From the IMG/VR virus record IMGVR_UViG_2870609773_000002, positions 1 through 64,000 of that record: a stretch of DNA of 64,000 bases; one strand, 5' to 3'. The number at the start of each line of letters is the position of its first letter. Position 1 is the first letter of the stretch. Under the pieces are notes generated by a model. That model worked only from the letters and a program-made list of their open reading frames with translations, did no database searches and was not told the DNA's origin. The stretch is from a virus. Taxonomy: Duplodnaviria > Caudoviricetes. Below, in pieces: positions 22,781 through 47,029 of this stretch. The translations under genes were made by a program, and so were the position numbers.

Positions 22781-22885
22781 TGGCTGTTGACTTCAGCCCC
22801 CTCGGAGTCACCGACGACCAAGCGCGCGACCTCTTCAAGCTCGGCGCGGCGTAGGCTGGTCCCGCGTATCTGCACACATACGCGG

Positions 22886-22917
22886 AAAGCCCCGGCGCCT
22901 GCTGGCGCCGGGGCTTT
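22886..22917. terminator. Bidirectional intrinsic terminator-like hairpin
   Basis: AAAGCCCCGGCGCC-TGCT-GGCGCCGGGGCTTT. Confidence 0.8.
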
Positions 22918-22984
22918 CTTCTCTCCGGGCGGCTCGTTGAGTCCCCATGTGTCTATAAAGGTTCCCAACATGTATGCTTCGGCC

Positions 22985-23470
22985 ATGACGAAACGAGGCC
23001 CCCGCGGGCCGGTGCCGATCTACCAGGTGATCATCAAGGCCATCAAGGACGACATCGCCGCCGGCACGCTGAGGCCCGGTCAAGCCCTGCCCACAGAGGC
23101 CGAGATGTGCACCATTCACCAGGCGTCGCGACTGACGGTGCGCAGAGCCCTGGAGGTCCTGCGCGAGGAAGACGTCATCTACACCGTTCGCGCCGAAGGG
23201 TCCTACGTGGGGCCCCGCGACGCCCCGCAGATCCGCGAGCCGTGGGAGTTCGAGAAGATCGCGTCCGAGTTCGCCGACCGCATCAAGCGGGGCGACCTCA
23301 AGCCGGATGAGGTGCTCCCCTCGCAGTCGGAGCTAATCGAGCAGTACGGCGTGGCCAAGAAGACCGCCCGTGCCGCCATGGCCTTGCTGCGAGATCAGGG
23401 GTGGGTGTACACGGTGCCCACGATCGGAACGTTCGTTGCAAGCCGCGATAAATGGCCTACGGAGAGTTGA
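22985..23470 (+). CDS. Tandem GntR winged-HTH regulator
   Basis: LPTEAEM...SRLTVRRAL...GSYV and LPSQSEL...AKKTARAAM...GTFV; no effector domain. Confidence 0.85.
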   Translation: MTKRGPRGPVPIYQVIIKAIKDDIAAGTLRPGQALPTEAEMCTIHQASRLTVRRALEVLREEDVIYTVRAEGSYVGPRDAPQIREPWEFEKIASEFADRIKRGDLKPDEVLPSQSELIEQYGVAKKTARAAMALLRDQGWVYTVPTIGTFVASRDKWPTES

Positions 23471-23550: not shown

Positions 23551-23799
23551 TCAGCGACCGGAGCTGACCTGCTCTAACGCTGCGGCATATATATGCGCAG
23601 GGGTCGTGACGCCATTGACACGCGGCCGCCGGCGAGCGATCAGGGCCATCGCCGCGCAGGCCGCCAGGCAAGCGCCTGCCATGACGACGATGTCGATACC
23701 GCCGAGCCTGTCGGTGAGGACGACGTGGACAACGGCTGCGCCAAACACCAGGTTGCCGACGACGAAGGCCGCCACGAGGGCCGCCACCGCTCGGTTCAT
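23551..23799 (-). CDS. Small membrane protein
   Basis: Two hydrophobic helices; divergent from peptide gene. Confidence 0.5.
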   Translation of the reverse strand: MNRAVAALVAAFVVGNLVFGAAVVHVVLTDRLGGIDIVVMAGACLAACAAMALIARRRPRVNGVTTPAHIYAAALEQVSSGR

Positions 23800-24095
23800 G
23801 TTTCCGCCTTTCTCTCGTGATTGATTGCCAGAGCGTTCTATCATCCCCGTCCGACAAGTGCGCACATCACCCGGGGTGCCCGCCCGGCCGACGCGTCGGT
23901 AACACATCCGTAATCTGGCAAGCTCCCGTGTCATAGAAGTGCCATGTCGCCAAGATGCTGCCCGAAAATGTAGACAATCCCGCGAGAAAGGACTTTTATG
24001 GTCACTCCATGACGTGACGCCTCGGAGTGACAAAAAGTCAACTGGGCGTCCGTATCCCTTGCGTTCGTATCGTTCCAACCCCTGGGGGTTCCACC

Positions 24096-24287
24096 ATGTC
24101 CAAGCTCATGGGAGCGCTCACGCGCCTGACCACGTACGCCATTGCCGTCGCCGCGGCCGGCCTGTTCCTGTCGGCGCCCAGCGTCGCCTACGCCGACGAG
24201 GCCATCCCGGCCGACACTCCGTCCAGCCCTCTCGTAAGCGAGACGCCCGCTGAGTCGGTGCAGTCCATCCACTTCGGCGGCATGTAG
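24096..24287 (+). CDS. Small secreted peptide precursor (63 aa)
   Basis: GGGGGT SD; Sec-type signal ending AYA, then 30-aa acidic tail DEAIPADTPSSPLVSETPAESVQSIHFGGM. Confidence 0.7.
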   Translation: MSKLMGALTRLTTYAIAVAAAGLFLSAPSVAYADEAIPADTPSSPLVSETPAESVQSIHFGGM

Positions 24288-24337
24288 TCGCAGCACACGG
24301 CCAGGATGACGGTAAGGACCAGCCAGTACGGAGACTC

Positions 24338-24625
24338 ATGATCTGCCACGCCATCCGCATGTGGCTTCTGAACCTGACAGCGATGTCAGTCACGGCCTGG
24401 GCAATGACCGCCTTCGCGTTGTTCATTCTGTACGCGGATAGAGCAAGCGCCGCCGTGTACGCCCTGGTGGGCCTGTGGGCAGCCGCAGTGCCCATCCCCG
24501 TCACCATCACGCTCATCCGATGGTGGCAGCGGGTGCGTGTGGCCCGCAGGGTGCACCGCCTCGCCGAAGAACACAAACGTTTGTTCGAGACCATGTGTGG
24601 GGAGATCAGCTCAGGCGTGCGCTGA
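24338..24625 (+). CDS. Small 2-TM membrane protein
   Basis: GGAG SD; two hydrophobic stretches and basic C-tail. Confidence 0.6.
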   Translation: MICHAIRMWLLNLTAMSVTAWAMTAFALFILYADRASAAVYALVGLWAAAVPIPVTITLIRWWQRVRVARRVHRLAEEHKRLFETMCGEISSGVR

Positions 24626-24663
24626 CTACTCACAGCCGCGCCATCATCGGGGAAGGAAACGAC

Positions 24664-25617
24664 GTGCCACACCGGATCGCCGGCCTCAGCCTTGAGCAGG
24701 AGCGCCTCTACCGGCACCTGCTCGCCACCGGGCCCACCAGCATCCACGTGTTGGAGGGGCAGTTCGGGCGCGAGGTCTACGCGAGCCTGTACGAACTGAC
24801 CGTCCGAGGCCTCGTGCACGGCAACCCCTTGATGGCGCGGCGCCCCTCGGTCGCCATGAACGGCGTCCTCATGGCGCAGGCCGCAGAGCTTCAGCGGATC
24901 CAGTCGTACGTGGAAGAACTTGATCACATCTACGAGACGGGGCACCCGCCCGAGGGGGGTGACGCGGTAACCCCGCTGGTGAGCCGTGAGCAGATCCAGC
25001 ACTGGTTCGAGACGCTGACCGTCACGGCCGAACACGAGATCCAGCAGTTCATCACTCACCCGTTCCTCCCGCTCGCGCCGTCTGGGAGGACCGATTCAAA
25101 TTCTCGTTTGGATCTTGTAAACCATCCGGCGAAGTGTCGCGTCATCGTTGAGTGGAAGACCTTCCAGAGCCAGCCCGCCATCAACGGCCTGCATCACTCC
25201 CTCGACCGAGGGTGCGAAATCAGGCTTGCCGACAGGCTGCCGCACAAGCTGCTGATCGGAGACCGACGCATGGCCATGACGCCCCGCTATCCGCGGGACC
25301 ACACCGTCAGGCAGATGCTGCTCGTGCACCCGGGCACGCTGGTGGACTTCCTCGTCGAGGTCTTCGAGGCCGAATGGGAGCGGGCTCTCCCGCTCACGCC
25401 GGACCCTGCCAAATTCTCCGGCCTCGGCAAGCTGGAGCCCAGTGAGATGGTCATCGTGGAAATGCTGGTCGGCGGCGCACACGTCGATCGCATCGCCAGC
25501 GCTCTTGGAGTGCATCCCCGCACGGTCAATCGCAGGCTCGAAGACCTGAAGCGCAAGGCCAACGCCACCACCCTGTTCCAGCTCGGCGCCTACGCGTCGC
25601 GTCACTGGCTGAACTGA
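24664..25617 (+). CDS. TrmB-N / PLD-like / LuxR-HTH transcriptional regulator
   Basis: N-terminal wHTH, LPHKLLIGD, C-terminal IASALGVHPRTVNRRLEDLKRK; GGAAGGA SD + GTG. Confidence 0.8.
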   Translation: MPHRIAGLSLEQERLYRHLLATGPTSIHVLEGQFGREVYASLYELTVRGLVHGNPLMARRPSVAMNGVLMAQAAELQRIQSYVEELDHIYETGHPPEGGDAVTPLVSREQIQHWFETLTVTAEHEIQQFITHPFLPLAPSGRTDSNSRLDLVNHPAKCRVIVEWKTFQSQPAINGLHHSLDRGCEIRLADRLPHKLLIGDRRMAMTPRYPRDHTVRQMLLVHPGTLVDFLVEVFEAEWERALPLTPDPAKFSGLGKLEPSEMVIVEMLVGGAHVDRIASALGVHPRTVNRRLEDLKRKANATTLFQLGAYASRHWLN

Positions 25618-25620
25618 GCG

Positions 25621-26145
25621 CTACTCCGGCCGGAAGATCCGAAGCTGAGCTTCTGTCGCGTTCAGGGTCGCCTCGATCTGGGCCAGCATGATCGTCTCTA
25701 TCTGGCGGCGCTGGTCGCCTGGAACGCCCTTCAGGCCGCGTATCTGTTGCAGCATCGCCTGAAGTCTTTGCTGCACATGTTCAGGAGTTACGTCTGCGTC
25801 GATCGCCGCCAGTGCGGGGTCCGTCTTGGTCCGCTCGCGGATCCAATCGCGGAACAGTGCGGCCGCCCCAGGCCGGCCGCGCTCGTACAGGTCGTCCGGG
25901 GTGATGGTGGCTTCGTGTGCCAGGTCGGTGATGGCGGCGGCCATGAGTACGAGTTCGCGGTCTTCCGGGACCTTCTCGCCGGACTCGATGCGTCGCCATG
26001 TCGGCTCGGACAACGCGTCGCCGGCCAACTCCTTCGCGCGTGCGGCGGCGGCGCGAGTGGAGATGCGCTTCTTGAGCCCTCCCGGGTTGTTGCGACGTTC
26101 AATGAGGAACTGAACCACTTCTGAAGGCTTGTTGAGGTCGGCCAC
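25621..26145 (-). CDS. XRE-family immunity repressor candidate
   Basis: ISTRAAAARA...LSEPTWRRIESG HTH; divergent from recombination operon. Confidence 0.7.
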   Translation of the reverse strand: MADLNKPSEVVQFLIERRNNPGGLKKRISTRAAAARAKELAGDALSEPTWRRIESGEKVPEDRELVLMAAAITDLAHEATITPDDLYERGRPGAAALFRDWIRERTKTDPALAAIDADVTPEHVQQRLQAMLQQIRGLKGVPGDQRRQIETIMLAQIEATLNATEAQLRIFRPE

Positions 26146-26429
26146 GGCGAGTCAGAGGTCCTTTCGCGGCGTTTGATGCGTCATACGAGTCTGGCGCAAC
26201 GGTATCAACTGAAGCGTCGGCTTGGGTTATGTCAGCGCAAAGACGTTGATTACGCTCCGTGACATATGCGAGGTAGCTGCGATGACGCAGAAGACGCGTC
26301 AGACGTTGCATGATGCGTCACGAAGCGATAGTGTCGGTTATGTCGGTCCGATTGTGCACACCCGAAAGGGAAACGCACTGACAAAACGCCCGACAAACCA
26401 AACCCCAAGCCACGGAGCGTCATATCGCC
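26146..26429. promoter_or_regulatory. Divergent promoter / genetic switch region with motif B
   Basis: TGATGCGTCA at 26174 and 26311, AAGACGCGTCAGACG at 26291, GGTTATGTC at 26225 and 26336. Confidence 0.65.
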
Positions 26430-45988: not shown

Positions 45989-46060
45989 TGCGCCGCGCCA
46001 GCGATAAGGCCGGGGATGCCGTCGCCGGCTTCCCGCTGCCGTTCGGCGCAGGGGACGATC

Positions 46061-47029
46061 GTGAACGCTGAGCTGATCGTCGTCCGGAGCGAAGACGTCG
46101 CGCTGCCGCTGGACCTGCCGCCGATCATTCTCGACCTGACCCGGGCGTGGCTGTGGTCGTTCGACTCGAAGAACACGCGGGACACGTACGAGCGGTACAT
46201 TCGGCGATGGTTCGAGTTCTGCAACGAGACCGGCCTCGATCCGCTGGAGGCCCGCAAGCCGCACGGCGACGTGTTCTCCCGCTGGTTCCAGGAGACGGCC
46301 CGCCGACCACCGAAGCCGAAGACAGTGGCATTAGTCCTGTCCACGGTGTCGTCCTGGTACGAGTACCTGCACGAGACCGAAGCCCTCGACGCCAACCGGT
46401 TCAAGAAGACGCGACGACCGAAGATCCCCCGCAAGCACTCCGAGACGGTCGCGCTCACCAAGGGCGAGGCGCGGGACCTCCTCCGGGCGGCCGACGCCGA
46501 CCATGGCCGGGAACGGCTGCGCACCGCGGCGCTGCTCCGGCTGCTGCTGCAGACCGGCGTCCGCATCTCCGAGGCGGTGAACGCGCAGATCGACGACCTC
46601 GGGTTCGCCCGTGGGTATCGGACGCTGCGCATCACGGTGAAGGGCGGCGACACGATTACCCGGCGGCTGCCGGTGGAGGCGACGCACGCGCTGGATGTCT
46701 ACCTCGCTGAGCGGGCGCACCGCGAAGGGGTCGAGCTGCAGGACCTGCGGGGCCCGCTATTCGCGACCTCGACGGGCCAGAGCTGGAGCAGGTCGAAGGC
46801 GTTCGAGCTGGTGCGGCGCATTGCCGCCCAGGCGGGCATCACGTCGAAGGTGGGGCCGCACTCCCTGCGGCACACCTACGCATCGCTGGCGCAGGAGGCC
46901 GGCGTCGCGATGCGGCAGATCCAGCTCGACCTCAACCACGCCGACGTGTCCACGACGGAGATCTACTTGCACAGCCGGGACCGGCTGGAGAAGGACGCCT
47001 CTCAGGTGGTGGCGTCGCTGCTGGAGTAG
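46061..47029 (+). CDS. XerC/D-like tyrosine recombinase
   Basis: SAM-like N-domain; TGVRISE, VKGG, HSLRHTY, LNHADVSTTEIY; no arm-binding domain. Confidence 0.9.
   Translation: MNAELIVVRSEDVALPLDLPPIILDLTRAWLWSFDSKNTRDTYERYIRRWFEFCNETGLDPLEARKPHGDVFSRWFQETARRPPKPKTVALVLSTVSSWYEYLHETEALDANRFKKTRRPKIPRKHSETVALTKGEARDLLRAADADHGRERLRTAALLRLLLQTGVRISEAVNAQIDDLGFARGYRTLRITVKGGDTITRRLPVEATHALDVYLAERAHREGVELQDLRGPLFATSTGQSWSRSKAFELVRRIAAQAGITSKVGPHSLRHTYASLAQEAGVAMRQIQLDLNHADVSTTEIYLHSRDRLEKDASQVVASLLE

Follow-up and report, generated by a model that had tools for sequence, protein, structure and literature searches.

The stretch of viral DNA analysed here (64,000 nucleotides, hereafter the window; IMG/VR record IMGVR_UViG_2870609773_000002, positions 1 to 64,000) belongs to a temperate phage, 97 kb in size, whose host is a Nonomuraea-like actinobacterium. 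Located between a GntR gene and the switch of repressor and early operon is a module composed of a gene for a secreted propeptide, a gene for a small protein with two transmembrane helices (2-TM protein), a regulator gene and, convergent with the latter, a gene for a helix-turn-helix (HTH) protein, probably the repressor of the phage. This module, which is real and conserved and resides on phage DNA, has the anatomy of a propeptide-receptor system. Our best reading is that it may act as a peptide-signalling input to the lysis-lysogeny switch, in which an imported peptide binds a receptor outside the RRNPP family, making it an analogue of arbitrium built from unrelated parts; we give this a little less than an even chance. 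That the peptide is exported, processed and sensed, which DNA is targeted and what phenotype results are points that we infer from the sequence.

Conservation of the module and of its propeptide

In a protein search the regulator had about 25 close homologs, all from Streptosporangiaceae and 50-98% identical, the next matches being at 27-36% identity. The loci taken for comparison were 17 further members of this close family and two intermediate ones (35-37% identity), which share a common layout: GntR gene, small minus-strand 2-TM gene, peptide gene, 2-TM gene, regulator gene, convergent HTH gene and early operon. A profile search of 401 Streptosporangiales genomes, based on the intermediate proteins, yielded 13 new intact loci and three more clades, about 6% of the sampled genomes carrying the module. 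The total was 33 intact modules in four clades, from Streptosporangiales genomes and metagenomes; a metagenome scan gave, in addition, two distant loci. The sequence-only reading of this DNA had asked whether homologs of the regulator keep an upstream open reading frame (ORF) with a signal peptide. They do so throughout the four clades: in each of the 33 intact loci the close or intermediate regulator homolog is accompanied by a signal-peptide ORF, a 2-TM protein and an HTH homolog. One clade has the changed order HTH-peptide-regulator-2TM, with the set still complete. A decayed copy of the T-T-G-G-M type was also seen (L113, G169:C119:7099-11025), in which the tail T-S-T-G-G-M is kept, the signal-peptide frame is lost and the regulator stays in frame for its C-terminal half only.

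The ATG of the peptide gene in the window sits behind GGGGG, and the encoded propeptide opens with a basic n-region, followed by a hydrophobic core of 18 residues and by A-Y-A ahead of D. The predicted signal peptide thus spans residues 1-33 (cut A-Y-A|D) and is followed by a variable acidic linker of 23 residues and the tail S-I-H-F-G-G-M, the part after cleavage being 30 residues long, acidic and rich in P, S and T. A start preceded by a Shine-Dalgarno sequence, n-, h- and c-regions and an AxA-type site are found in every copy of the peptide. Across loci the linker measures 30 to about 115 residues and is hypervariable to the point of not being alignable. Conservation is limited to the signal peptide and the final 5-7 residues, as is typical of signalling propeptides. 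The tail consensus is [H/N/D/T]-x-G-G-[M/W]-stop, distributed as H-[F/M/T/V/A]-[G/A]-G-M in 19 loci, [D/N]-x-G-G-W in seven, T-T-G-G-M in five and H-x-G-G-W in two. Among loci the tail codons for Gly, Thr, Ala and Phe vary synonymously (GGC/GGT/GGA/GGG, ACC/ACG/ACA/ACT and TTC/TTT among them), showing that the constraint acts at the protein level.

The whole 12.9-Mb genome holds only two frames of 30-200 codons that combine a GG[M/W] end with a signal-like N-terminus, one of which is the peptide ORF. With such frames this rare and an equivalent ORF in 33 of 33 intact loci, the arrangement of the module is beyond chance. The other frame, on the minus strand of genome contig C1 (end at about 10,821,975), is a G/P-rich secreted ORF of about 85 residues ending in V-N-G-G-G-M; none of the six chromosomal regulator paralogs lies as close as 5 kb to it.

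Two other identities were considered for the propeptide. For a Sec-dependent class II bacteriocin one would expect a cationic and amphiphilic mature peptide that is conserved throughout, followed by a gene for a small membrane immunity protein; a bacteriocin with its immunity protein was rejected because the mature part is acidic, P/S/T-rich, 30-115 residues long, conserved only at the tail and free of family matches. A Pup-like tag was also rejected: the GG-x end is present, but so is a signal peptide.

A second pairing of peptide and regulator was found on an IMG/VR phage contig (L093), which encodes a secreted ORF with three DTAWG units, the last one at the stop codon. The gene divergent from it encodes a regulator homologous to that of the module over 304 columns (hhalign 98.3%, E 1e-14). 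The two pairs have in common a homologous regulator and a Sec-signal peptide with a short motif at its very end; they differ in that the motif is repeated three times rather than present as a single ...GG[M/W] tail, in the divergent orientation and in the lack of a 2-TM gene directly beside the DTAWG pair. Taken together, the DTAWG and GG[M/W] pairings mean that two distant branches of one regulator family are each tied, in phage DNA, to a secreted peptide with a conserved tail. Two genes downstream of the DTAWG peptide (L093:2488-2928) lies a gene for a protein of 146 residues with two N-terminal transmembrane helices and a Trp in each, a possible counterpart of the 2-TM component.

Regulator, membrane protein and control DNA

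All four ORFs described in the sequence-only reading were recovered at the positions it gave, and the 3 bases that it had counted between the stop codons of the regulator and HTH genes were confirmed (Table 1). Against Pfam, the scores of all four products stay below the curated family cut-offs; PHROGs gave no matches for them, and NCBIfam and PADLOC gave only generic HTH matches.

Table 1. Features of the module and its flanks (positions in the window)
Feature	Position	Strand	Remarks
Small 2-TM protein gene (82 aa from internal ATG)	23551..23799	-	divergent from peptide operon; conserved neighbour
Promoter/operator-like region of peptide operon, putative	23920..24095	+	conserved blocks in 20-locus alignment
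Secreted propeptide gene, 63 aa	24096..24287	+	signal peptide, variable linker, conserved tail
2-TM membrane protein gene, 95 aa	24338..24625	+	starts 50 bp after peptide gene
Regulator gene, 317 aa	24664..25617	+	wHTH / PLD-like / LuxR-HTH
All-helical HTH protein gene, 174 aa, probable phage repressor	25621..26145	-	convergent with regulator gene
Divergent switch region between HTH gene and early rightward operon	26146..26429	.	repeated TGAYGCGTCA-type sites

The regulator, whose GTG start follows GGGAAGGAAA, consists of a TrmB-type winged HTH (wHTH; residues 1-60), a long helix (61-98), a PLD-like domain (99-245, with the motif GCEIRLADRLPHKLLIGD) and a LuxR/GerE-type HTH (259-317). Its AlphaFold2 (AF2) model, built on a 144-sequence alignment, has a pLDDT of 89.5. 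In Foldseek searches the first 250 residues matched TrmBL2 (5bpd, E 5e-11), TrmB (3qph, E 2e-7) and 2f5t, the middle domain matched PLD-fold nucleases (Nuc/Zucchini), and the C-terminus matched LuxR-type HTHs, with weak matches to the C-termini of RhlR, TraR and phage VqmA. Residues 259-317 form a four-helix LuxR-type HTH that replaces the C-terminal sugar-binding subdomain of TrmB. The wHTH-PLD-like-LuxR architecture was thus borne out by model and fold search, and the description of the regulator as non-TPR and LuxR-type was correct, as it has no Pfam TPR, a TrmB/PLD-like fold and a LuxR-type HTH end. Family profiles agree at a lower level: Pfam TrmB scores 15.8 bits on the window regulator, below its cut-off of 25.6, its relatives carrying PF01978 on record or scoring near the cut-off of that family, and PF00196 scores 19.7 bits against a cut-off of 23.5, which the homologs P0036, P0037, P0038, P0028 and P0030 pass.

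A LuxR receptor of the acyl-homoserine lactone type was rejected, there being no match to the autoinducer-binding domain PF03472 and residues 1-245 having a TrmB/PLD-like fold. A catalytic PLD was rejected as well. The HxK(x)4D motif is degenerate (L-P-H-K-L-L-I-G-D), keeping K-x4-D with the His two positions before Lys changed to Pro, and the PLD-like domain is likely non-catalytic, as in TrmB. In archaeal TrmB the fold of this middle domain contributes to the sugar sensor, which supports a ligand-type domain. The wider regulator family comprises 2,797 representatives at E <= 1e-3; among the 37 residues that are invariant in the phage subfamily and differ in this wider family, 25 lie in the PLD-like domain, including H154, C158, H178, C184 and H194. 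The host carries six chromosomal paralogs, located elsewhere and away from the module, and the chromosomal paralogs inspected (22-30% identity; L119-L125 included) have no signal-peptide ORF nearby. Some peptide-less paralogs (27-32% identity; L009, L010, L015, L017, L024, L039, L045 and L064) are divergent from a gene for a conserved secreted protein of about 1,400 residues ending in ...QLDPATRTGW...QQF-x-Y, a recurrent regulator-target pair in Pseudonocardiaceae, Amycolatopsis, Catenulispora and Kribbella.

The 2-TM protein of 95 residues is predicted to have both termini in the cytoplasm and a short, variable outer loop (about 8-10 residues). A Trp in the first transmembrane helix (TM1) and L-W in the second (TM2) are nearly invariant, and its basic C-terminal helix is the best-conserved part (RRVRxARR...LGxxHARLFE). 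No family match in Pfam, PHROG, NCBIfam or PADLOC and no informative look-alike was found. The 2-TM protein is present in all four clades and is a core part of the module. In the T-T-G-G-M clade the gene for a 2-TM protein of like layout follows the regulator gene rather than preceding it, with W in TM1, L-L-W in TM2 and A-Y-x-L-G-x-E/H after TM2; the homology of this rearranged-clade protein was not demonstrable by profile comparison (hhalign E 0.047). The outer loop does not follow the tail type, the loops of L083 (HF tail) and L003 (HM tail) being near-identical. In a 98%-identical relative from Nonomuraea sp. NPDC050202 (L001:5674-5960) the 2-TM gene is frameshifted, its start running on into the frame of the regulator, which reflects either an error of sequencing or a natural 2-TM knock-out in an otherwise intact module.

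The 174-residue HTH protein had been called an XRE repressor. Its position and the repeated TGAYGCGTCA sites fit a repressor; the XRE-type HTH itself found weak support, with HTH_31 (Pfam) at 17.3 bits against a cut-off of 27 and the best Foldseek matches, the XRE-type HTHs EspR, Stl, lambda cI and C.AhdI, all at E >= 0.07. Sequence and fold searches gave no significant identification. Atlas look-alikes carry HTH_3/HTH_31, and a homolog is kept in the rearranged clade (hhalign 99.1%). We regard the protein as the probable phage repressor. In the gap between its gene and the early operon, which is more conserved than coding DNA in 20 loci, the TGAYGCGTCA-type sites lie at 26174-26183, 26282-26289, 26293-26302 and 26311-26320 and fit a predicted operator set for the HTH protein.

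The 180 bp 5' of the peptide gene contain blocks conserved among 20 aligned upstream regions, the flanking sequence not being conserved. These are a 25-nt element (23937-23961), TAGACA (23971-23976), TATGGT (23997-24002) and a TGAC-N5-GTCA dyad (24028-24040), TGTCA/TGACA dyads lying downstream of the TAGACA/TATGGT boxes. The 25-nt element is unique in the window, where none is expected by chance; a generic sigma-70 scan found no promoter in this region. The upstream region and the switch gap share no motif, which suggests that the peptide operon is probably under a separate regulator of its own. In relatives the regulator and HTH genes end against each other or with an overlap (0-24 bp), and no terminator between the two genes was found in the window. 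The two transcripts must therefore overlap, and this overlapping convergent transcription is the likely output route.

A signalling reading and its rivals

The reading we favour can be spelled out as follows. The 63-residue product would be exported by Sec and relieved of its signal peptide, and the disordered linker would be trimmed extracellularly to leave a C-terminal oligopeptide of about 5-7 residues (...H-F-G-G-M), which would accumulate with the number of infected or lysogenic cells. As our first choice for sensing, the peptide would be taken up and bind the PLD-like middle domain of the regulator; alternatively, the 2-TM protein would relay the signal, its cytoplasmic tail holding or releasing the regulator. 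The regulator would then alter transcription of its own operon, which runs head-on into the repressor gene and could in this way set the repressor level and hence the lysis-lysogeny choice.

The sequence-only reading had proposed to look for co-variation between the peptide tails and the middle domain of the regulator. At the level of clades there is a correspondence: each tail type comes with its own regulator residues at positions 158, 179, 184, 206, 218 and 237, His-type tails with C158/S179/C184 and M-ending tails with T206/M218/E237, the peptide-less paralogs having Y/F/Y at positions 158, 179 and 184. In a split test of the four clades, the His-versus-nonHis split gave 18 disjoint columns and coincides with the tree, and invariant residues (T206, M218, E237; C158, S179, C184) occurred only in the tail-defined splits. 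The M/W pattern needs two changes on the tree, but the two H..GGW loci, L090 and L118, have long branches that can account for it.

Several observations weigh against the favoured reading. The tree groups all regulators with His-type tails (Cys158/Cys184) in one clade, so that their tail-residue correspondence amounts to a single event. In raw counts a control split gave 9 disjoint columns and the M-versus-W split 7. Inside the main clade, column-wise mutual information showed no position in the regulator, 2-TM or HTH alignments that goes with tail positions -4, -6 or -7. Co-variation is therefore not separable from phylogeny. In addition, the PLD-like core motif is conserved in about 2,800 relatives and the chromosomal paralogs examined have no peptide partner, which means that the pocket is not peptide-specific as such. 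Finally, a simple import-and-bind model leaves the universally kept 2-TM protein unaccounted for.

In a rival reading, the released peptide or its tail would stay outside and be sensed at the membrane by the 2-TM protein, whose conserved basic cytoplasmic helix would sequester or release the regulator in a tethering relay like anti-sigma or Mlc/PtsG-type control. Such a scheme agrees with the retention of the 2-TM protein in all four clades despite the change in gene order, and with the concentration of its conservation in the cytoplasmic helix and the membrane Trp and L-W residues. It sits less well with an outer loop of about 8-10 residues that ignores the tail type (L083 vs L003), with a rearranged-clade protein whose homology is not demonstrable and with a DTAWG-type locus that has no 2-TM gene directly beside the pair; on balance we think it unlikely. 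We consider it just as improbable that the module is a lysogen-expressed accessory ('moron') cassette whose peptide acts elsewhere, in superinfection exclusion or in modulating the host or neighbouring cells, for example by blocking a surface receptor or transporter, with the 2-TM protein as partner or immunity factor and the regulator controlling only cassette expression. Exclusion genes of actinophage prophages are typically small secreted or membrane proteins adjoining the repressor, so the site is a typical one for such genes; the tie between peptide and regulator is drawn from sequence comparison, and co-variation within the main clade is absent, as would suit a cassette. Conversely, no PADLOC defence model matched beyond generic HTH, and the mature part is acidic, P/S/T-rich and free in length and sequence except for its last 5-7 residues, which sets it apart from bacteriocins and from exclusion proteins that fold. 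Its strict inheritance together with one regulator clade also points to a receptor-ligand relation, as does the second, independent pairing of DTAWG type.

The small ORF might instead act in cis, as a leader or attenuator or as an envelope-stress reporter read by the 2-TM protein, rather than encode a diffusible signal. In favour of this, the operon begins with this ORF, and a conserved 5' region precedes it. Its constraint, however, lies at the protein level: the signal peptide and the precise C-terminal residues are kept, with codons that change synonymously, which is not expected of a leader. Its length, moreover, varies three-fold; we consider a cis-acting role very improbable.

Phage context and comparison with known systems

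The window corresponds to bases 138-64137 of a 96.7-kb contig (C2) that is separate within a two-contig genome of 12.9 Mb. This contig carries large terminase, portal and head-morphogenesis genes, on account of which an AICE (integrative conjugative element) was rejected. A recombination exonuclease gene and a Gp3-like gene lie immediately right of the switch region, and a mid-genome tyrosine recombinase (46016-47029, +) is the sole recombinase in the window. The module is single-copy. In relatives it is found on contigs of 84-96 kb (one labelled plasmid) or within chromosomes of 9-12 Mb, which identifies the element as a temperate phage that occurs both free and integrated. A ParB-like gene lies near the terminase gene on C2, apart from the chromosome. 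In this strain the phage may be kept as a plasmid, its relatives being chromosomal. No terminal repeat was found on the 96.7-kb contig. Among phage databases, INPHARED gave no match (megablast, tblastn) and IMG/VR no relative of the close family; in PLSDB the regulator matched only paralogs at 27-29%.

The GntR-family gene (22787-23470, +; Pfam GntR 1.6e-27 in two matched stretches, with two wHTH-like stretches) marks the left edge of the module in most loci, and some relatives carry an HTH_31/DUF5753 gene and a DUF397 gene in the interval that separates it from the module. At the site of the small minus-strand gene of the window, relatives have a called gene for 74-84 residues, and a 2-TM sequence was seen in L090 and L098.

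Literature searches on actinophage peptide communication and on TrmB/LuxR/PLD regulators returned only Bacillus arbitrium and RRNPP work and no actinophage or actinobacterial peptide system; in the literature searched, lysis-lysogeny decisions steered by peptides are reported for Bacillus-group phages with RRNPP receptors alone, and actinobacteria do not figure in a 2026 review of phage communication. The module looks like an undescribed peptide signalling system outside Bacillus phages, no published description having been found in the literature searched. More specifically, but tentatively, it can be proposed that peptide quorum sensing evolved independently in actinophages, with ...x-G-G-[M/W] oligopeptides read by a one-component TrmB/PLD-like/LuxR receptor with a 2-TM partner and the repressor set by convergent transcription. 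Actinomycetota are so far known for small-molecule signals. If the proposal is true, phage 'small talk' would have evolved more than once and found a second, non-homologous solution, the peptide would be the first ribosomal peptide signal in filamentous actinobacteria, and a ligand class could be assigned to a regulator family that is large (about 2,800 relatives at E <= 1e-3) and uncharacterised. Taken with the DxxWG-type pairing, it would turn the regulator class into a general family of peptide receptors in Actinomycetota. With its compact size and its natural tail variants (HF, HM, HT, HV, HA; D/N-x-GGW; TTGGM), the module makes cross-talk and specificity testable.

The closest parallel is arbitrium, the AimP-AimR-AimX system of Bacillus SPbeta-like phages, in which AimR joins an HTH to a TPR-like (RRNPP) peptide-binding domain. 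As in arbitrium, a phage encodes a short Sec-signal propeptide in which only the C-terminal oligopeptide of the mature part, ending in small residues, is conserved, and the propeptide gene adjoins the gene of a cytoplasmic HTH regulator, the pair lying at the lysis-lysogeny control region. This AimP-like anatomy recurs in 33 loci, as an analogy without sequence similarity, family and fold scans giving no sequence homology to any arbitrium part. The receptor here is of the TrmB-wHTH/PLD-like/LuxR-HTH type rather than TPR/RRNPP, an extra obligatory 2-TM protein is present, and downstream of the regulator there is no small co-directional ORF like aimX but a convergent HTH gene 3 bp away; the hosts, moreover, are Actinomycetota.

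The gene arrangement also recalls prgQ/prgX of the Enterococcus plasmid pCF10, a peptide-controlled conjugation switch whose facing, overlapping transcription units allow interference or antisense control. Shared with it are convergent abutting genes and, as proposed here, a peptide-controlled regulator; pCF10 differs in controlling plasmid conjugation, in its PrgX receptor of RRNPP fold and in peptide import by Opp/PrgZ, parts that are not present here. With archaeal TrmB and TrmBL2 the regulator shares the N-terminal wHTH, the long dimerisation helix and the PLD-like middle domain, and it differs in being bacterial and phage-borne and in having a LuxR/GerE HTH in place of the sugar-binding subdomain. 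Phages also use LuxR- and VqmA-type receptors to eavesdrop on host autoinducers. The regulator resembles these in being phage-borne, in its LuxR-type HTH and in the proposed coupling of the viral life cycle to a signal that diffuses; unlike them it has no autoinducer-binding or PAS domain, and its candidate signal is ribosomal and encoded by the phage itself.

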